64,000 bases of DNA from Thermoplasmatota archaeon (GCA_030740765.1 JASLWR010000004.1:24873-88872); one strand, 5' to 3'. Shown: positions 4,064-62,603, counted from the stretch's first letter. Notes: generated by a model not told the origin, from the letters alone. Numbers and translations are program-made.

Positions 4064-4263
4064 TTTACTACTGGTCACTTGGGCCATTCGATCATTCCAT
4101 AGCTTGTTTATAACGATAAAGAGAGTGAACCATAAGGGCGATAGCTATCCGATTGCTTATCTTAATCATAGTATTAATTCATTAATAACTATTTGGTAAA
4201 ATATCCGGATTTGTCCTTTTCCAGTATTTTTTTAACAATTACCCATCACTAGCGGAATTTTCT

Positions 4264-8751: not shown

Positions 8752-8772
8752 AAGTTGTGGGTATCATCCTCA

Positions 8773-8806
8773 GAAATATCAGTATGCACATGCATTCTGA
8801 TATTTC
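8773..8806 (-). terminator. 10-bp inverted repeat hairpin (gaaatatcag/ctgatatttc) in the spacer downstream of paralog C and upstream of paralog B.
   Basis: Perfect 10-bp stem with a 14-nt loop read directly; lies between the stop of 8879..13234 and the start of 4264..8751. Confidence 0.3.
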
Positions 8807-8878
8807 TACCGGATAAAACAACGTACAACCTGTATTTATATCTTATCCGAAGATGCAGCGGGAAGTCTTAAACCGAAG

Positions 8879-11800: not shown

Positions 11801-13234
11801 ATGAACATTCCCGGAACCTTCGTAGACCACGGTCATGTTGCTAAAAATCAGTTTTTCCTTCCCCCTTATCCAGTTTCCCCTATCAACAATACCCTGATAT
11901 TCACCCTCCACCACGGTCTCTCCCACGAGCTCAAGGTCATTTTCTACACGGAATAGATAAGGGAATCGATCAAGGTTGAATCTCCCGGAGCTTCCGGTTG
12001 TATTTATAAAACAATCTATAAGCTCCTCGTGAGGGAATGTGAAGTCTAGCACGAAGGAAAAATTTATCCACCATTTCTCCACATTATTGTTGGAAAACGC
12101 CGAATCACCCAGCAGTTCCAGATGATTTCCGAGGTCATGAACCTTGTAAAAGTTCTTTTGTGTTCCATTGAATCCGAGGCTTATGTTGGTGTTGTTGTAA
12201 TCTATGTAGATTCGGAGGTCGGAAAGATCGTCAAGAGATTCGAAGGTGGTGACGTTGATACCCAGTTTATAGGAACGGTACCCGGCATAGCATACTGCGC
12301 TTTTATTATCCGAATCAATCAGGTTGACCGATTCGGGCTCGGGGGGACGGGCCGTGGGGAAATTATCCTTAATCATATCGATATATTTTACCATCTGCAG
12401 AAGTTCGTTGTTTCCGCGGTTGCCCCAGTCGAAGGTCATCATGTTCATCATGACATACCCTTCGTCCAGCACGTATTCTATGAAAGCCGGTTTATTGTTC
12501 GCGTTGGACCAGAGAATGTCATTCCACTTGTTGGTTTCGGGATTTGTTCCGAGGTTCGCTCCACCGGAGTCCGCAAGCATACCCGGCGCGGTAACATAAC
12601 CGTGGCAGGTGGTACCCCAGCCCTGAAAATTATTGGCATTAAGTCCATTTCCGCCGTAGCCCTGACCGGTAATCCATTCGTGATCGTTATCAGCCACCGT
12701 AGGGTTCTCGTCGGTGTTGCCGGATTGCTGGTAACTACCGAAGTTCGAACCACCCGGTCCGGTAACATCCTGTCCGGAATTATGCGCGGCATTTGCAACG
12801 AAGATACCACCTTTCTTCACATATTTCTCGATAATACCCCCGTTCATCATTGTCTTTAATGATCCGTCTGCAATATCACCCTGGCAGCCAGTATAAATAG
12901 CATAATAGCGGTCGAAGAGGTACTCTGAATTGTGCTGGGCCGTTACCCCGGGCTGCTCCACATCAAAAGGGATTCCTCTGTTTGTTAGATGATTTTGTAG
13001 AGTGTTGGTACGATCCCCGCCCGAAGAGCAGACCAGCACCTTGTTCGCGGCTCTACTGGACCACTGTTTTCCGCCAATTGTGCCTGCATTTCGAATTTTC
13101 TCATCAATTGATTCAACGGTACTTATGGAATGGTCGCTCCAATCCGTGAGTAATGGGACACTAATTGCAGGGATTATCAATAGTATACAAAGTAACAGGG
13201 GAAGACTGCGTAAGTGGGAAATCACGCTTTTCAT
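8879..13234 (-). CDS. Giant single-pass surface protein, paralog C (1451 aa); same architecture, ThuA/GATase1-like head, C-terminal Zn ribbon MQCHSCGNNYSAEIVELPALVACPVCQTQG.
   Basis: Long ORF in the track. Signal peptide MKSVISHLRSLPLLLCILLIIPAISVP. Motifs FDATDSYDEDGDNLSYYW (PKD) and DSDGDGFSDGFERE. TM helix, then a P-rich tail. Confidence 0.85.
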   Translation of the reverse strand: MKSVISHLRSLPLLLCILLIIPAISVPLLTDWSDHSISTVESIDEKIRNAGTIGGKQWSSRAANKVLVCSSGGDRTNTLQNHLTNRGIPFDVEQPGVTAQHNSEYLFDRYYAIYTGCQGDIADGSLKTMMNGGIIEKYVKKGGIFVANAAHNSGQDVTGPGGSNFGSYQQSGNTDENPTVADNDHEWITGQGYGGNGLNANNFQGWGTTCHGYVTAPGMLADSGGANLGTNPETNKWNDILWSNANNKPAFIEYVLDEGYVMMNMMTFDWGNRGNNELLQMVKYIDMIKDNFPTARPPEPESVNLIDSDNKSAVCYAGYRSYKLGINVTTFESLDDLSDLRIYIDYNNTNISLGFNGTQKNFYKVHDLGNHLELLGDSAFSNNNVEKWWINFSFVLDFTFPHEELIDCFINTTGSSGRFNLDRFPYLFRVENDLELVGETVVEGEYQGIVDRGNWIRGKEKLIFSNMTVVYEGSGNVHPDDNFFDVVVRDRMANEWWDNESSGKSVSIEAISGNATDPEEEYQISIVNIPEEGVCAKNLYFPLKIDAAAPLSPVNLQCRPDSFKGKSAEHTNKQEVFVTWDEVEDPASGLRGYYYSLMDNSTTENGSFTNETEVEINELPEGPVPVYVWCVDNVGNVGGAAASEILVDLSLPYFSNYTPLDGSWHNHTDVDCSVDIHDGKGGGVDGATIEYSVSKNGVHGFDLWIPVWMPEKTEPMTPVVKYVFLEGENNYLKWRAKDISGNGFVESSPVNIKIDNTPVNFAQTISPQEEWYLQKTITTKITVNDAGSGVDPESLEMRISTSGPTDFRSWMSIEPENIIKSGEDGFEISVTFTYAEGTENYIMFRGTDIVGNPFTLSDKFNLKIDTSPVYFGTFTPEENEYSNQQTVECFVEILDDGSGVDPGTVEYSMASGAGGDNDSFRPWKKVVNVVIGNPTQVLLELEFDWGPDNFIRWRADDKVGTGHNISKPYRVWVNSRPEAVISSPDQASYFRFDREIYFDATDSYDEDGDNLSYYWSSNVSANKSMSHLALFGSRLTPGKHIITLFVFDGHGYNESTDVRIEVGSKTDYETDSDGDGFSDGFERESGTDPYNGAVIPEGEPDIVPAESAGILGESSSLLLIILGCILLLILLILIIFFIVRKKRKSKEEKVAAPVPSFPRQPPYGQGPHSAQYAPLVQGYGGVMPAPMAGMPGSPAPPLMLAPGPGFVNPVQFQAAAPGQALTGAAALNTGYAGGSSYLLPTFSTDQGMQELGRLALPPAPEPSPAPVVFTGLEFPIQASVAPLGPDIGSPMPIADTTNISPVDNTLPSSPAPPIPPNAMEAAPPSISPPLMPPTGVEAVFPLPLPTPSMIPEVPAVPPEGSGDLSELDSYLAYLEDMTKPPEPAPPVASPTAPPAIPPAIPSVPEGAPAPVTNEITMQCHSCGNNYSAEIVELPALVACPVCQTQGMIESL

Positions 13235-13390
13235 TCAATTCAACCTCTTTCCATACTGACCGACAGCCCTTACCGCCCGGCGTTGGTCTGCCTTTGGAGT
13301 CATATGATAACAAATCCATAGTCTTATGAATAAATAATGCTTTCGTTTGAAAAGGATAAAACCAGCACGAATATTCTCATCGATGCCGGA

Positions 13391-16300
13391 TCATATTGAT
13401 TCTATAACTCCTTGCGTCTGGCAAACCGTGCAGGTGACCAGTGCAGGGAACTTAGCAATCTCCGCTATATAGTTATTGCCGCAGGAATGGCACTGCATAG
13501 TAATTTTATTAGTCGGGGGAACCGGACTTTCTTCCGGAACCGGGGGTACGTCGGAAGGTGTTGGCTCCGGTGGCGGGGACAATCCACCCAGGGTAGTTAG
13601 ATATGTGTCGAGTTGGGATAAATCACTATCCGCTGAAGTGTCTATTGGAGGTACGCCAAGCACTAAAGATGAAGTGCTGCTAGGGGAAATAGTGGTGGGT
13701 TCCGGTGGAGCCGGGGGTGCTTCACCACTTAGCGGAATGGGTGCTGGAGGCGATTGGAAAGGGTTTTCCATTGCACTTACCCCAGGTAATAATGCAGGTT
13801 GGGCTGAAAGATCCGGAGCGGTCATCTGGGTTGGAGTGAACGCTCCAATCATTCCTTGATCTTCCGAAGGAGGTGGTCCCGGCGGTAAGGCCATTCTGTC
13901 GAGGTTCTGCGGCCCCTGATCGGTACTGAATAATGGTAATGAATATGCGGTACTGCCTGTCATCCCTGTCCCAGACTGACCGTAAAGAGCCAGCTGCTGT
14001 GGCTGAGTTTGCTGGACTTGATTCGGGCCGGAATATTGAGTGTTTGATATATCAGGTACTATCGACTGTATTAGAGGAGGATTTTGAGCTCCCCGCATCC
14101 CCATAACGGCTGCCTGATATTGCGCCATTTCCCCGTACCCTTTCTGCTCAACAGGAATAAATTGACCCTGGGGATAAGGATGCTGGGCCGGTCCGTACAT
14201 TGATTGCGGCATAGGTGACCGGATCGGAACCGAAACATCTCTCACTTCGTCCTTTTTTCTTCTCCTCACAATAAATATGATGACCAAAACCAGTATGGTC
14301 AAAAATAACACAATACCAAGAATGACGAAGAATAGCGAAGAGCCTCCTCCGAGTATGCCACCGCTTTCGGAGATGACGATATCAGGCTCGCCATCCGGGC
14401 TAATGGCACCGTTGTATGGGTCGGATCCTGATTCCCGTTCCAGTCCGTCTGAGAATCCGTCCCCGTCGCTGTCCCGCTGAAAATCGACCTGGCTGATCAC
14501 CTCTAGCTTAACTTTCGTACTCTCGTTGTAACCGTGTCTGTCCGAAACGAATAATGTGATCGTATGTTTTCCAGGGGCTAATCCGGCGCTGAAATAGGCG
14601 TCGAATCCGATTGAACGATTCACACTGACATTTGAGGACCAGTAATAGCTAAGATTGTCCCCATCCTCGTCACTTGAACCGGAAGCATCAAAAGTAATTT
14701 CGCTATCGAACCTGAAATACGACCCTGGATCGGGTGAGGCGATTGCCGCCTCCGGCCTGGAATTCACCCATACCCGGTATGGCAGCGATATGTTGAGCCC
14801 GGTACCCATCATGTCGTCGGCACGCCACCGGATAAAATTGTCATATCCCCAATCGAATTCCAGCTCTATCAGAACCTGCGTGGGATTTCCCGCAACAACA
14901 TTTACCACCTTTTTCCATGGCCCGAATATCTTTTCGTCGCCCCCCATCCCGGTGCCCCCTGCTCCATTTGCCACGGAATACTCAACCGTCGCTGGATCCA
15001 CCCCCGAACTGGCATCGAGTATCTGGATGAAACATTCCACCTTCTCGTTGTCTGCATATTCGTTCTCATCCGGTGTGAATAAACCAAAATAAATGGGAGA
15101 TGTATCGATTTTCAGATTGAATTTATCGGAGAGAGTGAAGAGATTGCCTACCATATCGGTTCCTCTGAACATAATGTAGTTATCCTTTCCCTCCGCGTAT
15201 TTGAAAGTCACTGTTATCTCAAAGCCGTCTTCACCGGATTCGCTGATGTTTTCGACATCTACGGACTCCCACCGGCCGAAATCGTTGGGGCTAGACGTGG
15301 ATATCCTTGCTCCAAGACTGTCCGGGTTCACACCGCTTCCAATGTCGTTAACCAATATCTTTGTGGTTATTTCTTCATGATCATACCATTCCACCTGAGG
15401 TGATATCAGCTTTGCAAAATTGATAGGAGTGGTGTCCACTTTTATATTGTACGAGGGTGATTCGACAAACCCATTTCCAGTGATGTCCTTTGTGCGCCAT
15501 TTAATATAATTTTCCTCGCCCTCCTGAAATACGTATTTGATATTTGGCACCATGGGTTCATTCAACTCGGGTATCCACGCGGGAATCCAGAAATCGAAAC
15601 CGTGCATCCCATCATTGGACACGGAGTACTCGATAGTGCTGCCGTCCACACCGGATCCAGTGCCATCATAAATCTCAATCGAGCAGTCGATATCAGTATG
15701 ATTGTGCCATGAACCATCCTCCGGGGTGTGATTCGAAAATACTGGCGGTGTCAGGTCCACAAGTATACCGGATGAGGCGGCCGTGCCGATATTTCCGACC
15801 TTGTCCACACACCAAACGTAAATTTCCGCGAATTCCTCGTTCAGTTTCTCGATCTTGACCTCTGTGACATTGGTGAATGTCCCGTTACCAGTTCCCGACT
15901 TATCCACCGGGGAATAATAATAGCCCATCAGACCCGATGAGTGGTCCTCAACCGGATCCCATGTGACGAACATCTCGGCGCGATTGGTATGCTCGGTCTC
16001 CTTGTCCTTGAAATCATTGGCATGGCACTTTAAGTTGACGGGGAAGAGAGGCGGGTCCGCATCTATTCTTAGTGGAAAGGTCAGATTTGTCATGCAAATG
16101 CCTGTTCCGGGTATGTTCTCGATGGTGATGAGATATTCTTCTTCCGGGTCCGTATCGTTTCCGGAAGTGATGTTTATCTCGATATTTTCTCCCATGCTCT
16201 CGTTATCCCACCAGGCGCTCCCGTTATTATCGGCAACCCTGACATCGAAATAGTCATCATCGGGGTAGATGTCCGGAGCACCTGCATATCGTACCTTGAG

Positions 16301-17620
16301 ATTGCTGACCTTAATCCTTTCCCTGCCCCGTATCCAATCGTTCTTTTTCAACTCACCCTGATATTCACCTGTAAGATCGGGAATACCAACCAGCTCCAGG
16401 TCATTCTCGACCTTGAAAAGGTGCGGAAAGCGGTCCGTTCTTACAATTCCCGTGATGGCAGCAGTACTGATATAGCAGTCCACCAGTTCTTCATGTGGGA
16501 ATGTGAAATTGAAAATTACTGAAAAATTCAACCACCACCGCTCGACCCCGTCCGTGGAAACCTTGGAATCGTCAACATTCAATTGAACGTGCCCGTCCAA
16601 GTCCTGATATTTGTAGAAGCGAGATTGTGTCCAGTTGTAGCATAGTGTAGCATTGGTAGTATTATAATCAAGGAAAACCTTGACCTCGGAAACCTCGGTA
16701 AGGTCCCTTGCGGAGGTGACATTCACGCTGAGGGTGTAGTTTCTATGACGGGCATAGCATATATTATTCCCGTCACCCTGTCCCAAAATGGCTGCGTTAT
16801 CGGTATAGGCCGTGAGGTCCACTTCCAGCCAACATGCTACTGGCGTCCCACCCTGGTTCTGACCAACCGTGAGAAGAACTTCGGAGCCGAGCGGAATGGT
16901 GGTTATCTCACCATGGGACGCGGAACTACCGGAGAACGATGGCCGGTTCATGTTTCTAACCATGGGATGATTCACGGATGCCACGAAATTATGGCTATTA
17001 CCATTTCCATTTGTCCTTACACCGAAAGGACCGGGGACACCCCTGGACCACCGGCGTTGGTAATTCGTACCGAACATGTCTATCAATATTCCACCGTCGT
17101 TCACGTATTTCTCCATTGAAGGGACCAGTGACTCCATCTGGTTCAGATGCTGGTTCGGCTGGTACTCGGAAATAATGATCATCCGGTAAATGTTCGGATC
17201 GAAATCGTTTGCATTGATCCCGCCAGCGCTTTTCTGGGTGAATTGTATTCCTCTGTTGTTCATCTCCCGGCGCCAGCCGTCAGACCATCCCTGGTGATCC
17301 CATATGATAAGTATGGCTCCCGAATCCGCATGGGTGGGCCATAACCAATCGAAAGTATTGATGATAAAATAACGGGAATGTTGGCCGTTGCCGTAGCCGT
17401 AACTTGCTATGGTCCCCGTGACAAAATAAATGCCTTTGTCACCAGCGGTACGTTTGTTGGACGAGATGGGCGGAGGCTTTGAGGGGCTCTTTACGTTCAA
17501 CCCCACATCGTGGTTTTCGCTGAGAAGTATTTCAGAGCAAATAGTAAGATATCCCGTTCCTATGAAACACAAAACAACAGCTATCGACACCACCACGGGC
17601 CATGGATTCGTTCTACTCAT
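13391..17620 (-). CDS. Giant single-pass surface protein, paralog D (1409 aa); same architecture, C-terminal Zn ribbon MQCHSCGNNYIAEIAKFPALVTCTVCQTQG.
   Basis: Long ORF in the track. Signal peptide MSRTNPWPVVVSIAVVLCFIGTG. Motifs FDASGSSDEDGDNLSYYW (PKD) and DSDGDGFSDGLERE. TM segment, then a P/Q-rich tail. Confidence 0.85.
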   Translation of the reverse strand: MSRTNPWPVVVSIAVVLCFIGTGYLTICSEILLSENHDVGLNVKSPSKPPPISSNKRTAGDKGIYFVTGTIASYGYGNGQHSRYFIINTFDWLWPTHADSGAILIIWDHQGWSDGWRREMNNRGIQFTQKSAGGINANDFDPNIYRMIIISEYQPNQHLNQMESLVPSMEKYVNDGGILIDMFGTNYQRRWSRGVPGPFGVRTNGNGNSHNFVASVNHPMVRNMNRPSFSGSSASHGEITTIPLGSEVLLTVGQNQGGTPVACWLEVDLTAYTDNAAILGQGDGNNICYARHRNYTLSVNVTSARDLTEVSEVKVFLDYNTTNATLCYNWTQSRFYKYQDLDGHVQLNVDDSKVSTDGVERWWLNFSVIFNFTFPHEELVDCYISTAAITGIVRTDRFPHLFKVENDLELVGIPDLTGEYQGELKKNDWIRGRERIKVSNLKVRYAGAPDIYPDDDYFDVRVADNNGSAWWDNESMGENIEINITSGNDTDPEEEYLITIENIPGTGICMTNLTFPLRIDADPPLFPVNLKCHANDFKDKETEHTNRAEMFVTWDPVEDHSSGLMGYYYSPVDKSGTGNGTFTNVTEVKIEKLNEEFAEIYVWCVDKVGNIGTAASSGILVDLTPPVFSNHTPEDGSWHNHTDIDCSIEIYDGTGSGVDGSTIEYSVSNDGMHGFDFWIPAWIPELNEPMVPNIKYVFQEGEENYIKWRTKDITGNGFVESPSYNIKVDTTPINFAKLISPQVEWYDHEEITTKILVNDIGSGVNPDSLGARISTSSPNDFGRWESVDVENISESGEDGFEITVTFKYAEGKDNYIMFRGTDMVGNLFTLSDKFNLKIDTSPIYFGLFTPDENEYADNEKVECFIQILDASSGVDPATVEYSVANGAGGTGMGGDEKIFGPWKKVVNVVAGNPTQVLIELEFDWGYDNFIRWRADDMMGTGLNISLPYRVWVNSRPEAAIASPDPGSYFRFDSEITFDASGSSDEDGDNLSYYWSSNVSVNRSIGFDAYFSAGLAPGKHTITLFVSDRHGYNESTKVKLEVISQVDFQRDSDGDGFSDGLERESGSDPYNGAISPDGEPDIVISESGGILGGGSSLFFVILGIVLFLTILVLVIIFIVRRRKKDEVRDVSVPIRSPMPQSMYGPAQHPYPQGQFIPVEQKGYGEMAQYQAAVMGMRGAQNPPLIQSIVPDISNTQYSGPNQVQQTQPQQLALYGQSGTGMTGSTAYSLPLFSTDQGPQNLDRMALPPGPPPSEDQGMIGAFTPTQMTAPDLSAQPALLPGVSAMENPFQSPPAPIPLSGEAPPAPPEPTTISPSSTSSLVLGVPPIDTSADSDLSQLDTYLTTLGGLSPPPEPTPSDVPPVPEESPVPPTNKITMQCHSCGNNYIAEIAKFPALVTCTVCQTQGVIESI

Positions 17621-35484: not shown

Positions 35485-36308
35485 ATATAGGTGCTCCTGT
35501 AGAGTATACGAACTAGGTCATGTTTTTTCGTGAGCCCTTTGGTGTCTTTATATAATTCGTTCACCAATCCAAGATATTTTGAATCCCTAAGTTTCTTGAA
35601 GAGTTCTTTGGCCTCTTCCCCAGTTAGTGTTGGAGTGGGTTCTGGCAATGATATTTCAATCAGTGGTAGAAGAAATGGGATAATCGTTATTTATTTTTTT
35701 CTTGGATTTAAATAAAACCGGCCGATTTTCATTGATGGCAACATTGATAGGATGTTGTCAAAATGGTGTTAGCGGTATGGCAGGGGGAAAGAAACTTACC
35801 CTCAAAATTTACATAATCTAATGTCAAAATAATGCAATAGTTTTCATACTTGGAATCAAAACCGCCAATCGATCGGCCAAACAAGGATACTCACTTTCGA
35901 CTGTACGGACCTTTCCTCCTCTGGCCGATCTTTTACGACAATCGTCCAATAGCTTGACGGTATGCCATACTGACCACAATAATTCCTCATATTGTTCCCG
36001 GTATAATGCCTCATAAGCGACCTGCTTGTAATGAAGAAGGAGACTGTTCCTCTCGCCTACCCATCCTTCCTTTTTTATCGACGCACCCCTGGGCGCATTA
36101 GACGAACTGCACAGGGAGAAATTGCTCACCAACCTCGAGTGGTTAGGCTCCCAGGTCATGCTTGCCGTGACCGACGCGGAACTGCCCGATGACCTTGTCA
36201 AGAAATTCTTCAGCGTGAACCTTGCCGCCCATTACCAACTGGATTACGACCAGCGGACCGGACTATCGTCTGCGAAACGCCTTGATAAACCGCTTGGAGG
36301 GTAGAAAT

Positions 36309-36758
36309 ATGAGTAAGGGATCGGATAAGGATGCGTTGGAATCTCTCGGTGGAATGGACTTTTTCCTTAATCCTATGCTTAAAGAGAGATACAAGGAAGC
36401 AAAAGAACGCTTGATGGGAACCGATATGATCACAACTTATAAACTGGGGTGGGCTGTAGGGTTTATAAACCAAGACAATGAAGATGTGTCTGAAATTCCC
36501 TTAACTCATCGGTGGAGAGCATTGGATCGTCCATGCCTCAGAGATAAACACGGTTTGGGAGCACTCCTTTCCCTGGTCCCAGAAATCGAAAAAATTGCCT
36601 GTGGAGGTAAACCCGATGAAGCGCGAGACAGAATGGATGGAATAGCCCAGGCGGGCCTGAGGCGAATCCTTGACTGGCTGGAAGACCCGCGCCATGAGGA
36701 GCGGGATATTTTCGATTTTCTTTATCAGGAGATACAGCGGCAAGAGGAGGGGGTATAA
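36309..36758 (+). CDS. Hypothetical ~150-aa protein, first gene of an uncharacterised three-gene cassette. The track ORF starts earlier at an alternative TTG.
   Basis: ATG at 36309 is preceded by ggaggg. No recognisable domain. Its stop overlaps the next start by 1 nt (taATG). Confidence 0.55.
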   Translation: MSKGSDKDALESLGGMDFFLNPMLKERYKEAKERLMGTDMITTYKLGWAVGFINQDNEDVSEIPLTHRWRALDRPCLRDKHGLGALLSLVPEIEKIACGGKPDEARDRMDGIAQAGLRRILDWLEDPRHEERDIFDFLYQEIQRQEEGV

Positions 36759-37213
36759 TGGTAAATTTTGGGGAAGCAAGAAGCTTCACAATAAGTCCAG
36801 AAGGCCATTTAACCATGAAACGGATCACAGAATTAAGCAATTTTAACGACGGAAAGAAAGTTTTTCAGAGATTAGACATATACTTTGCTGCTGCTGCTTG
36901 GGGCATCGCGAATCGAAGTGATGGAAAAGTGACAAAAATACGGGGCAAAGGATACGACATAAGCCAAATAGACCCCAACGGCCTTTTCCAGCTCGTCCTT
37001 GAGAATTTACACCCAGAGATCCAGGACGACGTAGCGGAACTGAAGAAAGCATTTGAGGAATATGCCGAGGCCGGCCTCAAGCACTTTTCCGAAGTGGTCC
37101 ATAGTGAAGTGGATCTGCTCGACTTAATGATGCCTGAAACGTCGAAAAAAAGCCGGGAGGAACAACTCACGGCAAATCTCAGACGGTCCATTGACGAGCT
37201 TCTTGAGGAGTAA
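36758..37213 (+). CDS. Hypothetical 151-aa protein, second gene of the cassette
   Basis: Translationally coupled to the upstream gene; no recognisable domain. Confidence 0.55.
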   Translation: MVNFGEARSFTISPEGHLTMKRITELSNFNDGKKVFQRLDIYFAAAAWGIANRSDGKVTKIRGKGYDISQIDPNGLFQLVLENLHPEIQDDVAELKKAFEEYAEAGLKHFSEVVHSEVDLLDLMMPETSKKSREEQLTANLRRSIDELLEE

Positions 37214-37215
37214 CT

Positions 37216-38628
37216 ATGAAAACACGAGAGTTGGAACCCTGGGAAAAAAAGTTGATCGAGCACTACCCGGGCGTCATATTCGACAAGAGCCTTGTGGACA
37301 TGGACCTCGACAGCCAGGTCCCGCGCTATGTGAGCGAGTATTTGCTCCAGAGATTCCATAAAAGAACCAGGGCCAAGAAGGCTCATAGGAATTTCCGCCG
37401 CTTTATAGAACGGTTTCTCCCGGAACCGCGGGAGCGCCATGCTGTAATTCACCGCCTAACACAAGAGGGCTCGTTGAGAGCAATAGACCACTATAAGGTC
37501 GAGGTAAATGTGAAAACAGGCGTACATTTGGTTCATATCCCCCGGCTTGGTATACATGACGCCCGTATCGACCCTGATCTCGCAGGCGACTATGAACGGC
37601 TTTTAATAGATGGCATCTGGGGCATGGGCCACCTCGTCTGGGATGGTGAAAATGTCTTCGTAGAGAAATTCGTTCCCATCCAGGTCCAGGGCATCGACCT
37701 TCCGGCCTTCATCGAAGGACGGCGTTACTTCACCACCGAAGAGTGGATAAAGGTGCTGGTGAGCTCGCTCGGTCTCAATCCCGATGCATATACGCCCCGC
37801 CAACGTCTTATATTATTAGCACGTATGATCCCTCTCGTCGAGGACCGCGCGAATATCATGGAGCTGGCGCCTACGCAGACTGGGAAGACACATCTCTACA
37901 TCCATATTTCCTATCACGCCACACTTATCTCGGCGGGTACAGTGACCCCCGCTTACCTTTTCGGGAGCAACGTCGGGTACGGCTGCGAGGGCCTTCTCGC
38001 CCGTACTGACTGTATTGTTTTCGATGAGATCACGAACACGCGGCCCGCCAACCCTCAGGAGTTGATAGGAAAACTGAAGAATTACTTGGAGAGCGGGCAC
38101 TATGACAGGGGCAAGGTTCGAGGTCAATCAACAGCTAGCTTCGTATTCCAGGGGAACTATGACTCCGTTGACCCGAACACGATGCGGCCGTCTTCGCCGT
38201 ATCATCTCTCCTGCCTGCCGGCGGAATTCGAGGATTCGGCTCTGCTTGACCGCTTTCATGGGTATCTTTCGGGTTGGGATATGCCCAAGATCCACCCTGG
38301 AGCAATCAGCCGTTCCTATGGATTTATCTCGGATTACCTCTGCGAGGTACTGCATCAGTTCAAAAGAAGGAGTTACATGGATATCGTTACGAAGCGCCTC
38401 GATATCACGGCAGACGGGGCTAAAATAACGCTGCGGGACGTCAGATCTATCCGGAAACTTACTGCGGGATTCGTGAAACTTCTTTTTCCGAATGGCGAGT
38501 TCACGGACGGGGAACTCATAATGGTTGCGGAACTTGCCGCAGAGTTCAGACTGAACATGCTCGGACAGTTGAATCTGCGCGATCGAGGCAATTTTCCCAG
38601 TAAGGAACTGGTGGTTAGTGTGACATGA
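37216..38628 (+). CDS. AAA+-type P-loop NTPase (470 aa), third gene of the cassette
   Basis: Walker A ELAPTQTGKTH at about residue 210. Walker B CIVFDEITN about 55 aa later. Sensor-1-like FVFQGNYD. Arg-finger candidate LLDRFHG. The ~200-aa N-terminal domain is of unknown function. Confidence 0.7.
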   Translation: MKTRELEPWEKKLIEHYPGVIFDKSLVDMDLDSQVPRYVSEYLLQRFHKRTRAKKAHRNFRRFIERFLPEPRERHAVIHRLTQEGSLRAIDHYKVEVNVKTGVHLVHIPRLGIHDARIDPDLAGDYERLLIDGIWGMGHLVWDGENVFVEKFVPIQVQGIDLPAFIEGRRYFTTEEWIKVLVSSLGLNPDAYTPRQRLILLARMIPLVEDRANIMELAPTQTGKTHLYIHISYHATLISAGTVTPAYLFGSNVGYGCEGLLARTDCIVFDEITNTRPANPQELIGKLKNYLESGHYDRGKVRGQSTASFVFQGNYDSVDPNTMRPSSPYHLSCLPAEFEDSALLDRFHGYLSGWDMPKIHPGAISRSYGFISDYLCEVLHQFKRRSYMDIVTKRLDITADGAKITLRDVRSIRKLTAGFVKLLFPNGEFTDGELIMVAELAAEFRLNMLGQLNLRDRGNFPSKELVVSVT

Positions 38629-47387: not shown

Positions 47388-47930
47388 ATGGACAGAATTT
47401 CATTTACTGAAGAAGAAATAAAGTACCTCACCGATTTTGTAAAAAGAGGTCGGAAAAGCGCAAGAGAATTGACCAGAGCCCGTATTTTGTTACTAATACA
47501 CGATGGCAAAACAGAGATGGAGATAAAAGAAATATTGCGTATCTGTAGGGCAACCGTTTCCAACACCAAGAAGAGATATCGTGAAGGAGGTCTTGAAATT
47601 GCTCTTTCGGAGAAGCCAAGATCTGGTCAGCCAAGAAAATACACCAATGTACATGAAGCCGAGATTATTGCGATGGCGTGTACAGACTCACCAAAAGGCC
47701 GTAAGAGATGGACCATTCGACTCTTGACTGAGCGAATGAAACGGCGGAAGTGCTTTAAGACACTCAACCGAGAAAGCGTTCGTCTAATTTTAAAAAAAGC
47801 AAAACTCGACCTTGGTCGAAAAGAATGTGGTGCATTTCAGAAATAAACCAGGAGTATCGAGAACGGATGTATGATATTCTTGAGTTGTATGAAAAAACTA
47901 GGTTTTTATGAGAATTCAAACACCCCACCA
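47388..47930 (+). mobile_element. IS630-family transposase remnant: N-terminal HTH region, frameshift, short continuation, then truncation (no DDE domain)
   Basis: Typical IS630 N-terminus ARILLLIHDGKTEMEIKEILRICRATVSNTKKRYREGGLEIALSEKPRSGQPRKYT...RKRWTIRLL. After the stop at 47846, another frame reads EYRERMYDILELYEKTRFL*, which matches the IS630 MEDVLxxYE region. Confidence 0.65.
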
Positions 47931-48033: not shown

Positions 48034-49062
48034 GTGTTTTTATATAAAAATATGATATTTGAAAAAATGACAGGTCTTACTCATAGGGTAAGGGAAATAT
48101 TCGTGGAACGTAGATATTGTCAATGGTGTGAAGCTCGACAGAAAGTCGAGGTTCGGAGCTTGACGATGTTCGCGGAATCGCAGCCCAGAGGGACCGATTC
48201 CGCTGAATTCTATAAATGGAGCTTTTTTTTTCTTTCTGCAGTTATCCTCGTTACGATCTGTTTAATATTAGTTACGAGTGATATCGAAAATAATACTGAT
48301 GAATTTGAGATCGAGAATTCTATCCTTTCTACCGACGAGCCTGTTATCATAGGTACCCGGGCCGATGAGAGCTGTCCGGCCGGCGGTTCCGTGAATGGTG
48401 ACCAGGAATACTCTTGCGGGAGTTCCTGCCACGATGTACAAAGCGCTTCGAAAGTGATTTTGAGTACATCCTACCAGGCCATGTCACCAGGAGAGACCAT
48501 TACTGTTACAGTAAGAATAACTGGTGCGGAAGCCCAGAGTTCCTCTGTGGGAGTGTTTCTGGTAACAAGCCTGTCGTCCGAAGAGAGCCACCCTGGGGAA
48601 GGCGGATGGGAAATTTTATCGGACCCCAGCGGTTCGACGAATTTTAATTACTATCTGAAAGATGCAGTTTATGGCGGGGGGGCCTGGACATGGACCCTCA
48701 AGGCTCCAGCGAATCCGGGGACGTATTACCTTTATGCAAGGGAACACCATGGAAACGGGCAGAAATATTGGCAGGAAAACACAAATGGGCTGAAATTCGA
48801 TGTTATCGAGACGGAAGGTTCCGGCTCAGGATGGTTGCCTTTGATCTATGTGTTCACGGGTCTCATCATAAGTTTCTTCGTTATCTTGATAATTAAAACA
48901 ATACGGAAACGCGACTCATCAAAAAAGGGTGGGACAAAAGATTTCCAGGATGTTTACGAAGACGGCGAAACGATGATCGAATGTCCCAAATGCGCCTGCT
49001 CGTTAAAGGCAAAGAACCGGAATCGACATAAGAGAAGGTGCACAATTCGCGGGCGGATTTGA
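48034..49062 (+). CDS. Membrane protein: N-terminal TM anchor, ~170-aa extracytoplasmic domain, second TM helix, basic cytoplasmic tail with C-terminal zinc ribbon
   Basis: TM1 FFFLSAVILVTICLILV. TM2 WLPLIYVFTGLIISFFVILII. C-terminus IECPKCACSLKAKNRNRHKRRC. The track start is an alternative GTG; a likely ATG is at 48052. Confidence 0.6.
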   Translation: MFLYKNMIFEKMTGLTHRVREIFVERRYCQWCEARQKVEVRSLTMFAESQPRGTDSAEFYKWSFFFLSAVILVTICLILVTSDIENNTDEFEIENSILSTDEPVIIGTRADESCPAGGSVNGDQEYSCGSSCHDVQSASKVILSTSYQAMSPGETITVTVRITGAEAQSSSVGVFLVTSLSSEESHPGEGGWEILSDPSGSTNFNYYLKDAVYGGGAWTWTLKAPANPGTYYLYAREHHGNGQKYWQENTNGLKFDVIETEGSGSGWLPLIYVFTGLIISFFVILIIKTIRKRDSSKKGGTKDFQDVYEDGETMIECPKCACSLKAKNRNRHKRRCTIRGRI

Positions 49063-58737: not shown

Positions 58738-60774
58738 ATGGACGAAGCCCAAAACGATACTGAATCCGATGACGGGTATGAAGAAGACATCCCAGCACCG
58801 AGACGAAGAGATTATATTCCATCCATCGCGATGGCGCTGATATTCTGTGTTGCTATCATCCTGGGATTGGCTCTTTCTCCCATATATACCTCCCAGGGAA
58901 TGAAGGCTTTCAAAAACGAGGATGCGGTTGTCAATCCCCTGCTCTATATTATTTTTATCATTGTGTTTACTATAATAGTCCTCTTCGTGGTCAAGAAGGG
59001 TAAACGGAGCTGGATCAAGTATTTTTTTCTGGGAGCTATCTTTTTTACCATCATAAACGTCGTCTCTCCGGTACTGGACGGAGCGGTTTATGGTGTGGGC
59101 GAGGATTGGGAAAAGAAGACCTATGGGGATGAATTGGCTGCCTGGGATAAATCGGTTTTTGGCGGAAACGAATACGATTTCGCCATTCATGCGGACGGAC
59201 GTTTTGCAGTTTACGAGGATGAAAGTGAAATATTCTCGTATCAAGTGGGTAACCCGGTGGATGACCACGCCGATATCACTGTTTTTTCGTTATCATCCAA
59301 TAATCGTGATGATGCCGTCGCGGTAGCTGTCAAAGGGGCCGGTATCCACCTGTTCACCATTGAAAATTCGGATAAGATCCTACATCGTTTTTCGGCTCCC
59401 GGAAACGTTTCAACTTACCTTTTCGATACCTTGAATAACGATAATTTCGAGTTTACTTCTTGTGTAATTGATAATTCGGGGAACAATCCAACAATAAACT
59501 TGACGTCAATGAACCTGGGATACGATCCCAACGGTACCGTCGTAATTGGCCCGCATTATTATTACGAATATTCACTGGAGAACATAACGAACTCTGACGG
59601 AAAACAGATCCGGATCGGTGGAGAAAACCTCACCACGGCCGTATTGATCCCTGGGAAGAACCATGGGTTGAGGATCTGTCTCTCGGTTAATACCTTGAGT
59701 TACTTATTTAGCCTCCCGGGCCTTGACAATTGCTCCACCGTGAAATTTCCCTCACCCCTTGGATCAACGTACATTCTTGGCGATGGAGGACAAAATGAGC
59801 TGGTTCTATACAATCGTGATAAGTTCGAGGTCTTTTCATTAAGCGATAACGCCGTTGTTTCCATAGCAAAGAAGGTGATGGATGAAAAAATTGATGATCT
59901 GGTAGTTGCAAAAGGGATAAAGGGAGACGACACGGAAGCCGTTTACGTGCTGTCCAATGGTAGGATTCATCTGTTCGGTCCTGATGATTGGAAGGAGGGA
60001 TATGGTTATACCGAAGAAAAGCAGAAAGGGGCAAGCAGACTTTCGGTAAGCGACGCGGATGGTGACGGTCACATAGAGCTGAACCTGCTGTCTGGTAATG
60101 TTGTTCGACAATATGAGATATCCCCGGTGGAAAGGCACATCTGGGTTTGGGCCGTCGGTACTGTGGCAGCTTTGGCCCTGGTGGGAGCCATCCGCTTTCA
60201 CCCCGAGTGGTACGTGGTGGACGGGGTTGGAATCCTGGTGGCAGTTGGAGCCATAGCTCTGATCGGGATATCCCTGGCAATTCTCCCCTCTCTGGTTCTC
60301 CTGGTGATACTCGCCGTGTATGACGCCATATCCGTTTACAAAACAAAACACATGATCGATCTTGCTGACGGCGTTATGGAAATGAGGCTTCCCGTATTAC
60401 TTGTGATACCAAAGGACGGCAATTATTCATTCAGGAAACAAAAAAAATTGACCGAAGAGCTGGATAGCGGCGAGCCCCGGGGCGCCATGTTCATGGGACT
60501 TGGAGATATAATAATTCCCGGTATTCTTATTGTTTCTGCTTTCACCTATCTTCCCGAAGGCGTCCTTTTCGGGATCAGCAAGGCCTTGGTGGTTGCGTTG
60601 GGAGCTTTGATAGGTGGCTTGGTGGGTTTTGTTGCATTGATGAGATTCGTGTTGAAGGGAAATCCCCAGGCAGGACTGCCACTCTTGAACGGCGGAACGA
60701 TACTCGGTTATCTGATATCTTATATGATCCTTTACGGTGATTTTGGTTTTGGTCTAACTTTCAGCCTTTTCTGA
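58738..60774 (+). CDS. Presenilin / signal-peptide-peptidase family intramembrane aspartyl protease with ~450-aa N-terminal extracytoplasmic domain
   Basis: Catalytic motifs LAVYDAISVY (YD) and MGLGDIIIPGILIV (GxGD) lie in polytopic C-terminal half. N-terminal TM segments, then a large domain with Ca-binding-like DADGDGH. Confidence 0.7.
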   Translation: MDEAQNDTESDDGYEEDIPAPRRRDYIPSIAMALIFCVAIILGLALSPIYTSQGMKAFKNEDAVVNPLLYIIFIIVFTIIVLFVVKKGKRSWIKYFFLGAIFFTIINVVSPVLDGAVYGVGEDWEKKTYGDELAAWDKSVFGGNEYDFAIHADGRFAVYEDESEIFSYQVGNPVDDHADITVFSLSSNNRDDAVAVAVKGAGIHLFTIENSDKILHRFSAPGNVSTYLFDTLNNDNFEFTSCVIDNSGNNPTINLTSMNLGYDPNGTVVIGPHYYYEYSLENITNSDGKQIRIGGENLTTAVLIPGKNHGLRICLSVNTLSYLFSLPGLDNCSTVKFPSPLGSTYILGDGGQNELVLYNRDKFEVFSLSDNAVVSIAKKVMDEKIDDLVVAKGIKGDDTEAVYVLSNGRIHLFGPDDWKEGYGYTEEKQKGASRLSVSDADGDGHIELNLLSGNVVRQYEISPVERHIWVWAVGTVAALALVGAIRFHPEWYVVDGVGILVAVGAIALIGISLAILPSLVLLVILAVYDAISVYKTKHMIDLADGVMEMRLPVLLVIPKDGNYSFRKQKKLTEELDSGEPRGAMFMGLGDIIIPGILIVSAFTYLPEGVLFGISKALVVALGALIGGLVGFVALMRFVLKGNPQAGLPLLNGGTILGYLISYMILYGDFGFGLTFSLF

Positions 60775-60780
60775 TACATC

Positions 60781-60895
60781 CGCAGGAATCCTCTTCGGTA
60801 ACCCCCACCGTTTGGTGGGGGCGGAGAAGAGGAAGCAGATTCCTGCGTTTCCGAGGATGAAACCCACAGATTCATCTGTGGGTGATTCATTTATT
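60781..60895 (+). repeat. Intergenic copy (~115 nt) of the hairpin-rich repeat also found inserted at 4372-4596
   Basis: Its first 22 nt (cgcaggaatcctcttcggtaac) pair as an imperfect long inverted repeat with 60827-60848 (gaagaggaagcagattcctgcg); perfectly paired arms are cgcaggaatc/gattcctgcg and ctcttc/gaagag. Inner hairpins cccccaccgtttggtggggg and cccacagattcatctgtggg. Ends in gtgattcat, like the copy at 4596. Confidence 0.55.
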
Positions 60896-60953
60896 TCGGT
60901 TTTCGACCCACGAACTAACTAGTTGACAATACTTTCGGATCGTATACATTAAC

Positions 60954-61190
60954 TCACCCGCATTTCGGGCAAAAATATAATCCTTGGGAGGAGTCTACCA
61001 GGAGCGGGTCACCACATCTGGGACAGATGTTTTCCTGGGGAGTCGCTATTGGCGCCGGTGGGGCTCGGGGCGCAAATTGTGGTGAAACGGGCTCTGCCAT
61101 ACCTTGGAAAGTGTAGTCGTGAATGAAATAATTGTTATCGTCGATATATCCCTTTACATATTCTTTCTTGATGCATGTATTGATGAGCAT
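60954..61190 (-). CDS. Small zinc-ribbon protein (Pro-rich linker plus C-terminal CPRCG...CPKCG)
   Basis: C-terminus ICPRCGDPLLVDSSQGLYFCPKCG. The start may be the internal MAEPV, which would remove the overlap with the upstream gene. Confidence 0.45.
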   Translation of the reverse strand: MLINTCIKKEYVKGYIDDNNYFIHDYTFQGMAEPVSPQFAPRAPPAPIATPQENICPRCGDPLLVDSSQGLYFCPKCG

Positions 61191-61513
61191 TTCGGTCTTG
61201 GGTATAGGTTTGCCGATTTTTTTGCCACTTCCACTATCTTTATCTTTGGATAAGACCGCAGTATTGCGCTGATATCTTGAATCGGTTTGTCCTGCCGATA
61301 TTTATAATAACCGAATATGAAAAAACCAAGCCCGATCATAAAGAAAGGGAAGCCGCAAACAACGGTGAGCATTGTTCCATTAGACTTGTTTTTGGCCTCC
61401 GTATTGTCCTCCAGCCCATCGAAGTAATACGACATCCCCATTATGAGGAAACCTATACCAATAAGTAAGACTATGATTCCGATTGCTCTGTATACGAAGC
61501 CGGGTTTTGCCAT
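61154..61513 (-). CDS. Small membrane protein (two TM helices)
   Basis: Hydrophobic segments AIGIIVLLIGIGFLIMGM and VVCGFPFFMIGLGFFIFGYY. Confidence 0.45.
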   Translation of the reverse strand: MAKPGFVYRAIGIIVLLIGIGFLIMGMSYYFDGLEDNTEAKNKSNGTMLTVVCGFPFFMIGLGFFIFGYYKYRQDKPIQDISAILRSYPKIKIVEVAKKSANLYPRPKCSSIHASRKNM

Positions 61514-61606
61514 AGATAATTACCTGATCCCTATCTAGTACCTCAAGATGTTTTATGAGATCTTACAGGTTTGGCCCGATGTTGGATCGGGGAGTTTATG
61601 ATCGGA

Positions 61607-62242
61607 TTACAGTGGTTTCCCGCAGCCTTTGCAGAATTTATTCCCAGGTGGGGATTGTGAGCCGCAGGCCCCGCAAAATACACCGCCACCACCAGAAGCT
61701 CCTGCTCCCTGTCCCATGACTGAGCCCATCTGCTGGGCCATCATCTTGTATTCCTCCATTTTCTGGGATTTCTTTTGCTGTTCGATAAGCTCGCTCATGC
61801 GGGATTTCACCTGGACCGGATTAGCGACATTTAACCAGGCGACCTCGTATGCTAGAACTCCCATTCCCCTAACTCCTCCTCCACCTGCGGTGTTAAAGCC
61901 TATCATTCCAGCGCCAAATATCCTTGCAAGGAATGGCCGTAGAACCACCGTATCGGTGATCCTGTCATAGGGAGCTTCTTTGAAAGTTTTGCTTAGAATT
62001 CCTGTTTGTGAAATGACCCTTTTATTGGTTGCCGCATATGTCGTGTGTTTCAACATTGCCATTATGACAAAAACAAAAACACCAATGAAGATTGCGTAAC
62101 TTACCAAGCAAATCGCACCGACACCAATATCACCAGCCATAAGATAAATTGAGTATATCAATGCAAATATCGTTACCACAAATAGTGCCGCGAGTCTCGT
62201 CATAATGGATATAAATATGTGGGGCCCCGTTCCCAACCCCAC
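61607..62242 (-). CDS. Membrane protein with bacterial-type PH (bPH_2/YdbS-like) domain and C-terminal zinc ribbon
   Basis: Two N-terminal TM helices. YATNKRVISQTGILSKTFKEAPYDRITDTVV is typical of bPH_2. Gly-rich linker, then CGACGSQSPPGNKFCKGCGKPL. Confidence 0.6.
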   Translation of the reverse strand: MGLGTGPHIFISIMTRLAALFVVTIFALIYSIYLMAGDIGVGAICLVSYAIFIGVFVFVIMAMLKHTTYAATNKRVISQTGILSKTFKEAPYDRITDTVVLRPFLARIFGAGMIGFNTAGGGGVRGMGVLAYEVAWLNVANPVQVKSRMSELIEQQKKSQKMEEYKMMAQQMGSVMGQGAGASGGGGVFCGACGSQSPPGNKFCKGCGKPL

Positions 62243-62603
62243 AGGTCGGCTTATACCGACCCATTGCTATCGTCTTCATTTTAATAAACTCTGGCGAGGG
62301 CGTGCGTTTCTTACGTCGCACGCCCATGTTTGGTTACTATGTACTCAATCATGTTCGCTTTCTCCACCCACGAAAACTCAAAACGTCTGTTTATATTACA
62401 CAAACGAATAAATGTACAATTTGGAATCTCCATATGCAGGGCTCAATAGATCTGGAACACATTTGTCTCAAGGGAAGATTTGTCAAAAATTGCGAAATAA
62501 TCAGACCACCGTGAATTAAATCAACATATTGGGCTTTCCTCAAAGGTAAAGACAAATAATTAAAAGGAAACAATAAAAAAGGGTAAGCAATGTAATTAGG
62601 TAT

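Follow-up and report, generated by a model that had tools for sequence, protein, structure and literature searches.

Short palindromic mobile repeats have been described in several prokaryotic lineages, and four systems bear closely on the locus analysed here. PATEs (palindrome-associated transposable elements), which derive from IS200/IS605 elements, were defined in Haloquadratum walsbyi (PMC3119063) and have also been seen in Geobacillus stearothermophilus (PMC10055086). The ends of IS605 elements and of PATEs carry TAM and TEM pentanucleotides such as TTCAT or TTTAT, which are recognised through DNA guides in a subterminal position (PMC10055086). Among archaea no IS family is more widespread than IS200/IS605, and the Thermoplasmatota carry all annotated IS families (PMC13343696). 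The RPEs of Rickettsia are palindromic repeats of ~100-150 bp that are found between genes and, in frame, in many unrelated conserved genes (PMC10969869, PMC2229807; Ogata et al. 2000). An archaeal precedent for short palindromic repeats readable as coding sequence comes from M. jannaschii (Suyama et al. 2005, cited in PMC2229807). REP/BIME sequences are short palindromes that are thought to be moved by RAYT, a domesticated IS200/IS605-like Y1 transposase (PMC3733652). Our search of the literature retrieved no description of small non-autonomous elements in planktonic or marine Thermoplasmatota.

We analysed 64,000 nucleotides of a Thermoplasmatota archaeon; this whole stretch is the window referred to below. 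It contains an imperfect palindrome, copy A, which is probably one insertion of a short, non-autonomous, hairpin-ended family of mobile elements, PATE-like and of the IS200/IS605 type, that resides in uncultured marine Thermoplasmatota. The original prediction placed an element at 60781-60895, between a presenilin gene and a small Zn-ribbon gene. Both neighbours were located and the element is present, yet its true span, with the ends set from an alignment of 21 copies, is 60780-60890, the earlier interval having taken in 5 nt of flank. The features of the locus are as follows.

58738-60774, plus strand: presenilin-type gene (Pfam SPP, E=1e-68)
60775-60779, plus strand: left-flank motif of copy A, TACAT, which fits T-N-N-A-T; candidate target or transposon-adjacent motif
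60780-60890, plus strand: copy A, complete, 111-nt short form; intergenic, between convergent genes
60781-60847, plus strand: left-end compound hairpin of copy A, with P1, P2 and P3 nested
60781-60788/60840-60847, plus strand: P1 of the left hairpin, 92% of cells paired
60789-60796/60826-60833, plus strand: P2 of the left hairpin, 98% of cells paired
60802-60809/60814-60821, plus strand: P3 of the left hairpin, 95% of cells paired
60857-60890, plus strand: right-end hairpin of copy A (stem 60862-60870/60875-60883), 99.4% of cells paired
60954-61190, minus strand: Zn-ribbon ORF, downstream of copy A

The outer and inner inverted repeats that had been pointed out are all present in the sequence, with arms at 60781-60796/60832-60847 (16 nt, 88%), 60789-60796/60826-60833 (8 nt, 100%), 60802-60809/60814-60821 (8 nt, 100%) and 60862-60871/60874-60883 (10 nt, 100%). 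ATGAA at 60857-60861 is the complement of the invariant terminal TTCAT at 60886-60890, and the G+C content of the element is 55%. RNA folding, which had been proposed as a check, finds copy A far more stable than chance (z about -8): the fold of the region reaches -65.9 kcal/mol against -36.9 +/- 3.6 for dinucleotide shuffles, with z = -8.0 on the plus and -7.6 on the minus strand and 0 of 200 shuffles as good. When that structure is computed for single-stranded DNA with DNA parameters, z is -8.7. The structure of copy A is real and far above chance, yet it is not RNA-specific, because DNA parameters favour the same fold equally.

Covariation, the other check that had been proposed, yields three compensatory pairs across 12 distinct sequences. 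In an anchor-based core alignment of these sequences, with the structure derived from one alignment member, 96.7% of cells fall in standard pairs, as compared with 46-60% when the 3' partners are slid. In the left hairpins the pair at columns 13/51 changes from U-A to C-G in 5 sequences and that at columns 25/40 from C-G to G-C in 4 sequences (plus one G-U); in the right hairpin the pair at columns 86/101 changes from C-G to A-U in copy B. None of 500 column shuffles exceeded the observed percentage paired or the covariation score, a covariation that amounts to only about three independent events. The compensatory-looking changes claimed for the right hairpin of copy B come down to the last of these pairs, as the other two differences lie in the loop. 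One-sided changes are mostly G-U/G-T on the plus strand (9 cells), whereas A-C occurs in 2 cells, both in copy B and its relative in L006. A-C mismatches would correspond to G-U on the opposite strand, and since they are far fewer than G-U/G-T, the sequences hint at folding of the plus strand (in the orientation given for copy A).

Conservation of pairing had been taken as a hint of function at the level of RNA. A DNA transposase that reads hairpins accounts for the pairing, and for the strand bias, as well as RNA does. On the RNA reading the element would be a gene for a small structured RNA, or else a cis-acting RNA element (3'-UTR stabiliser, terminator or omega-RNA-like scaffold), and its copies would be paralogous RNA genes. 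It draws on the very stable fold, on the three compensatory pairs and on the excess of G-U over A-C on the plus strand, which implies single-strand constraint; that PATEs are often reported to encode omega RNAs counts for it as well (PMC10055086). Against it, single-stranded DNA favours the same structure equally, and no Rfam 15 family, omega-RNA/HEARO-type families included, matches at the gathering threshold anywhere in the window; near both copies a search at E up to 10 returned only sub-threshold noise (<=17.5 bits). Scans for tRNA and tmRNA returned nothing, and reading the element by eye revealed no AT-rich, TATA-like stretch. Within coding sequence, copies are found in either orientation with the host frame running through them, copies of identical sequence have unrelated surroundings, and copy A is absent from orthologous loci. 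The missing Rfam match, the copies within genes in both orientations and the lack of orthologous conservation of copy A tell against the small structured RNA of the original prediction, and we regard such an RNA as very unlikely. A side role at the transcript level, as an omega-RNA-like fragment or by acting on the 3' ends of the convergent gene pair, is possible.

The anatomy of the element is best seen across all 21 copies. Every copy begins with C[C/T]GCAGG (start C[C/T]GCAGGAATCC) and ends with GGTGATTCAT. The left flank reads T-N-N-A-T in 20 of the 21 (TACAT, TATAT, TCCAT, TCTAT, TCGAT or TGCAT), the sole exception being L028 with TCCAC; the last five bases of the element, the invariant TTCAT, fit T-N-N-A-T too. 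No terminal inverted repeats are found (left terminus CCGCAGGAATCC versus reverse complement of right terminus ATGAATCACC). The left hairpin (columns 23-42), whose start is 22 nt in from the left end, lies within a longer imperfect hairpin that spans columns 2-68, while the right-end structure occupies columns 78-111, its hairpin ending 7 nt before the right end. ATGAA, on the 5' side of the right hairpin, is invariant across copies and is the exact complement of TTCAT. Hairpins near both ends are kept in 12 of 12 distinct sequences, and the left and right hairpins bear only a loose likeness to each other (CCAC/GTGG in common).

The original prediction had also offered a MITE or a transposition intermediate. 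The mobile element stands, but not a MITE in the strict sense: the family is short (111-375 nt) and multicopy, and the ORFs across it are read-through frames only, all of which are strict MITE traits, yet it has no terminal inverted repeats, and a PATE-like element fits better. Consider a classical MITE moved by a DDE transposase with a 2-bp AT duplication, in which the element proper would be CCGCAGG...GGTGATTC with AT on both sides. AT does precede the element and end the conserved block in 20 of 21 copies, and the empty sites in paralogs C and D (see below) fit either model. However, the copy in L028, which matches that of L009 without a single substitution, is preceded by AC but ends in AT, a contradiction that comes from one copy only; the right-hand AT belongs to the invariant TTCAT; conservation reaches back to the T at -5, much farther than a 2-bp target; and the two ends of the element, besides lacking terminal inverted repeats, are structurally asymmetric. 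What speaks further for a DDE transposase is an ORF of the window, at 47388-47846, with HTH domains of the IS630 type, but it has no DDE partner and nothing nearby resembles the element ends. IS630-type elements, moreover, duplicate TA, not AT. Taken together, a DDE-mobilised MITE seems unlikely.

The ORF at 47388-47846 encodes 152 aa with HTH_32/HTH_29/HTH_23 matches, typical of the N-termini of IS630-type transposases. The ORF that follows, at 48034-49062, has no Pfam match and no DDE domain, and no inverted repeats delimiting an IS were found. We rejected 47388-47846 as the mobilising enzyme for want of a DDE partner and of related ends; it is probably an orphan or a domesticated fragment.

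A PATE-like element is what remains on the architectural evidence: we favour it because terminal inverted repeats are lacking, hairpins are subterminal, the flank carries a pentanucleotide, the right terminus has a similar motif and there is no convincing target duplication, and also because subfamilies are heterogeneous, small inserts are nested in palindromes (L015, L019) and a terminal-only mini copy exists (L009). These traits agree with what has been published on PATEs and their IS605-type parents (PMC3119063) and on the TAM/TEM and DNA-guide logic of TnpA in IS200/IS605 (PMC10055086).

Lengths of the copies are 111 (12 copies), 165 (4), 219 (2), 225, 228 and 375 nt, six classes that are all divisible by 3, seemingly intergenic copies included. 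The differences come from ~5 separate insertion or deletion events, namely a 54-nt module near the right end, inserts of 54 and of 213 nt at column 19, a stretch of ~60 nt within the left hairpin, and a single codon by which copy B and L006 differ; the chance that all five are divisible by three is ~(1/3)^5 = 0.4%. The 111-nt form is open in three frames, and it shows no significant avoidance of stop codons, 40-60% of dinucleotide shuffles having at least as many open frames. Therefore frame tolerance rests on length and not on codon content.

Copies also differ in the bases that precede the left hairpin (columns 18-22). Where these are GGTAA, the flank is TA[C/T]AT at 8 of 10 loci; where they are GGGGA, GGGAA, GAGGA or GAATT, it is TC[C/T/G]AT at 5 of 5 DNA-verified loci and at several inferred from protein. 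The association holds at the level of subtypes only, with no consistent register, and could reflect a target-guide relation or, equally, a confounding by intergenic versus coding context or by host lineage.

Several copies are composite. Those at L019 2857-3231 (213-nt insert) and L010 1585-1803 (54-nt insert) are both interrupted at column 19, L015 3250-3400 has an insert in the loop of the right hairpin, and L014 1540-1660 belongs to a related family that has the module CATCCGTAGAAAACC...GGTTTTCG.GGATG in common. Such variants suggest several interacting families of small repeats, as described for Haloquadratum. The variant right end in L015, considered as the end of a full-length IS, has no adjoining transposase-like ORF. 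In L009 a solo right-end hairpin of 27 nt (3958-3987) directly follows TCCAT, a terminal-only mini copy, and a degenerate right-end-like motif (11070-11101) lies beside the full copy in the aminotransferase gene (DHPQVNR/MNHPQMS), where it may be the footprint of an earlier insertion at the same spot.

The second copy that had been noted, in paralog B of a tandem gene family, was found at 4372-4599, and it allows the insertion itself to be examined. The first 17,620 nt of the window (1-17620) hold four tandem 4.5-kb paralogs on the minus strand, with 67-78% DNA identity, whose products are giant proteins (~1400-1500 aa) that contain PKD/TSP3-like repeats and, at the C-terminus, a CxxC...CxxC zinc ribbon. 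The element is present in paralog B only.

4367-4371, plus strand: left-flank motif of copy B, TGCAT, which fits T-N-N-A-T
4372-4599, plus strand: copy B, the long variant (228 nt, 76 codons), in frame within the ORF at 4264-8751 (minus strand)
8741-8776, minus strand: degenerate right-end-like hairpin TTTCTGAGGATGATACCCACAACTTGTGGGTTGTTCA (nhmmer core profile E=0.15, model positions 69-109; weak)
8982-8991, unstranded: empty site in paralog C, insertion point 8986/8987; ITM-QCHSCG contiguous in translation
13494-13503, unstranded: empty site in paralog D, insertion point 13498/13499

Paralogs C and D encode ...TNEITM-QCHSCGNNY..., where QCHSCG... belongs to the C-terminal zinc ribbon, and paralog B encodes ...TNEITM-(76 extra residues)-QCHSCGNNY.... 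At the DNA level the junctions in B read ...CACTGCAT / CTGCAGGAATCC...GGTGATTCAT / AGTTATCTC, and the same site reads ...CATTGCAT / GGTTATTTC in C and ...CACTGCAT / AGTAATTTT in D, so that copy B splits ...CACTGCAT from AGTTAT..., which adjoin in C and D. The repeat family D10 ends exactly at 4371, 8986 and 13498. Because the junction sequence is contiguous there, paralogs C and D can serve as empty sites for copy B, which has entered precisely and in frame, parting codons that adjoin in both of these neighbouring paralogs. Its 228-nt block is open solely in the frame of the host. With copy A it has ~42 nt of the left end (88% identity) and ~45 nt of the right end in common; it is about double the length, the interior inserts being hairpin-rich, and a close long-form relative of 225 nt is found in L006.

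An intron-like insert, spliced out for example by the archaeal bulge-helix-bulge endonuclease, would account for the precision of the insertion, and the CAT/ATG repeats at both junctions would permit exact restoration of the frame. Splicing, however, needs neither a length of 3n nor a frame open through the host, features that all genic copies combine; the intergenic copies share one identical sequence, and inspection of the junctions, our only means here, reveals no bulge-helix-bulge arrangement. We give this explanation hardly any credence. Integron attC sites, CRISPR repeats and bulge-helix-bulge introns were likewise set aside, by inspection only, on their end sequences, the context of the copies and the combination of 3n length with open frames.

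Around the site in paralog B some smaller resemblances were seen. The first 10 nt of the element, CCGCAGGAAT, occur exactly at 8967-8976 and 13479-13488, in paralogs C and D, 11 nt left of the site that is interrupted in B, which has CCGCATGAAT there; a further exact match lies at 8492-8501, against ~0.1 matches expected in the window. The element in B begins with CTGCAG, an echo of the flank CTGCAT. The matches near the site could be due to chance and codon usage (S-C-G) or could hint at homology-assisted targeting. The TTTCTGAGGATGATACCCACAACTTGTGGGTTGTTCA hairpin, which sits between paralogs C and B, may on its sequence be the relic of a related element.

Copies elsewhere were sought both through protein and through DNA. 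A protein database was queried with the concatenated open-frame translations of copies A and B, and eight proteins of unrelated families proved to contain a segment of 37-77 residues that is 54-92% identical to one frame of the element.

P0001 and P0008: uncharacterised proteins
P0002: FeThRed_B/rubredoxin (FTR/rubredoxin) fusion
P0003: DUF4350-type protein
P0004: PF00155 aminotransferase
P0005: UvrC
P0006: DUF4147/MOFRL protein
P0007: Fic protein

Six of the eight read the frame MNHPQM...RRGFLR[M/I/V], P0007 reads a plus-strand frame and P0008 the other open frame of the minus strand. An exhaustive HMMER search with the copy A peptide added the hosts P0022, P0024, P0026 and P0029; with ~6 true matches among 1.84 billion cluster representatives, the family is therefore rare in public data. 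DNA was fetched for 6 of the 8 protein-found loci. A right-end motif built from seven copies was then used to scan a metagenome collection and gave 15 more loci, all from marine samples and nine of them from one metagenome; among these, L015/L023 turned out to be the Fic gene already found independently by the protein search. The census stands at 21 complete copies at 17 distinct loci, with 12 distinct sequences, all in marine metagenomes. Most DNA-found loci are intergenic or lie within short, unsupported ORFs, and genic copies occur in both orientations. In reference genomes the left-end motif GCAGGAATCCNCTTCGGTNACC gave two chance matches only, in HisA-like coding sequences of Methanomassiliicoccaceae MAGs, with no hairpins after the motif, and a scan of viral contigs with both end motifs gave no match.

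Overall the element is found in about a dozen unrelated proteins and is translated in three different frames. Could it be a module at the protein level, a repeated stretch of coding sequence for a peptide linker or motif that recombination has spread, copy A being the remnant of a decayed gene? Most translated copies do use one frame (MNHPQM...RRGFLRM), and all lengths are multiples of 3. On the other hand, three frames on both strands are used across hosts (P0007 and P0008 versus the others), most of the loci found by DNA are intergenic or in short unsupported ORFs, intergenic copies are identical in sequence, and conservation tracks base pairing, not codons. A peptide module is in our view highly improbable. 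Two of the hosts, P0003 and P0029, are DUF4350-type proteins that look homologous and carry the element in their C-terminal tails, of the 111-nt type in the one and of the 165-nt type in the other, with dissimilar flanking residues; they represent either independent insertions or an old insertion in a fast-evolving tail.

The family has spread recently. L011, L014, L016 (=L024) and L017 (=L022) each carry a copy 100% identical to the 111 nt of copy A, which makes five loci in all, and the 150-nt flanks of these loci are unrelated (local alignment scores <=15/150), bar the same locus sampled twice. A second subtype is identical at L009 (aminotransferase) and L028 (FTR), from the same sample. 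Because identical copies sit at unrelated loci, the element is active at present or was so until recently. More broadly, that this is a mobile element at all rests on the precise insertion relative to the paralogs, the identical copies at unrelated loci, the flank motif and the in-frame copies.

Comparison with relatives points the same way for copy A. Three orthologous presenilin loci (73-78% protein identity) have no copy within 46 kb. Upstream, synteny is kept (HEAT-repeat protein, aspartate dehydrogenase, endonuclease III, presenilin), and nucleotide homology between the window and these orthologs stops at the stop codon. Copy A is thus lineage-specific and not a conserved feature of the presenilin gene. 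No exact orthologous empty site for it was found in the three relatives, the downstream region being different in each; since downstream gene content differs in every relative, the comparison establishes the absence of copy A and provides no clean empty site. Between the stop codon of presenilin and the genes for a 112-aa and a trypsin-like protein, 1.75 kb of the window (60777-62529) have no counterpart in L026 (12040-12055); the element lies at the exact left edge of this segment, which further comprises the Zn-ribbon ORF, a bPH_2/zinc-ribbon ORF and an ORF for a 119-aa membrane protein. The region after presenilin is a variable spot, in which L025 and L027 carry yet other genes, and copy A is best explained as a tolerated insertion in that intergenic spot.

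How would such an element move? The family, a 111-nt core with longer variants that carry extra hairpin modules, has no gene of its own and inserts immediately 3' of a T-N-N-A-T pentanucleotide. Most likely it is mobilised in trans, as single-stranded DNA, by a transposase of the IS200/IS605 type (Y1/HUH, TnpA). The protein would then bind at the hairpins, and the pentanucleotides of flank and terminus would act as TAM and TEM, the motifs for cleavage and targeting, so the conserved pairing would reflect constraint on DNA hairpins for transposition, with no RNA function. With a length of 3n and open frames, insertions into the linkers and tails of genes would survive as in-frame additions of peptide, much like the RPEs of Rickettsia, and selection may have favoured frame-neutral lengths. 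We infer the type of transposase from architecture, as no TnpA/TnpB partner turned up. Neither a TnpA or TnpB gene nor an autonomous element with matching ends was seen in the window ORFs that were scanned or in ~330 kb of fetched loci (partly scanned for protein families), and no Y1 (TnpA) or TnpB gene was found in the annotated loci L003-L009; a partner elsewhere in the genome is possible. What the scan of window ORFs turned up were housekeeping functions such as TCA-cycle enzymes and acyl-CoA carboxylase, the orphan HTH ORF at 47388-47846 being the only item that resembles a transposase.

A more specific version of the PATE-like reading would have a frame-neutral PATE lineage, constrained to 3n and acting as a generator of peptide insertions, in which the left bases may re-program the target, GGTAA-type copies going to TA[C/T]AT and GGGGA-type copies to TC[C/T/G]AT, and in which an omega-RNA-like transcript could serve a TnpB elsewhere. 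As a whole we consider this version doubtful, with a low probability.

A gene of separate interest in the window, at 37216-38628, encodes a BrxL-type Lon-like protease, a component of BREX (Pfam BrxL_ATPase, E=2e-93). The two adjacent ORFs that were scanned (36222-36758 and 36758-37213) have no Pfam match, and no other BREX gene was found among the window ORFs scanned.

The palindrome downstream of presenilin is thus explained without a new RNA. The element is selfish DNA, as it lands between genes and, in frame, inside unrelated genes. For the annotation of these marine archaea this carries a warning: segments of 37-125 codons such as MNHPQM...RRGFLRM are transposon-derived inserts, not domains. 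The element could also be used as a strain marker in ocean metagenomes. Should the link to IS200/IS605 and the rule of lengths in multiples of three both hold, archaea would have in this family a counterpart of the Rickettsia RPEs whose transposition chemistry is known, and experiments could address how selfish palindromes get into genes that survive the insertion.

How, then, does the marine element compare with the known kinds? With PATEs it shares a size too short for a transposase gene, multiple copies, near-terminal palindromes, the lack of terminal inverted repeats and of an evident target duplication (on one informative copy), a conserved terminal oligonucleotide and a flank pentanucleotide ending in AT, as well as heterogeneous subfamilies, small repeats nested in palindromes and terminal-only mini versions such as the solo right end in L009. 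It differs in that no IS200/IS605 parent with matching ends was identified, in that its two hairpins are unlike each other, those of many IS605-type elements being near-identical, and in its hosts, which are marine Thermoplasmatota and not haloarchaea or Firmicutes. REPs are single hairpins of 20-40 bp with a GTAG or CGTC head that are extragenic, whereas the marine element is at least 111 nt long, has two different structured ends without GTAG/CGTC heads, and enters genes. The M. jannaschii repeats belong to another lineage and, to our knowledge, are unrelated in sequence. The likeness to RPEs lies in recurrent in-frame fusion into unrelated conserved genes, where the insert is tolerated as an extra peptide segment; no relation in sequence is expected, the hosts being archaeal and not bacterial. 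RPEs are described with terminal inverted repeats of ~12 bp, which the marine element lacks, and their copies are mostly old and diverged, whereas several copies of the marine element are identical. One trait is unusual against all of these kinds, namely that every length variant is a multiple of three, and together with the recurrent in-frame genic copies it is not a described trait of PATEs. The closest counterparts are the RPEs of Rickettsia in behaviour and the PATEs in architecture.
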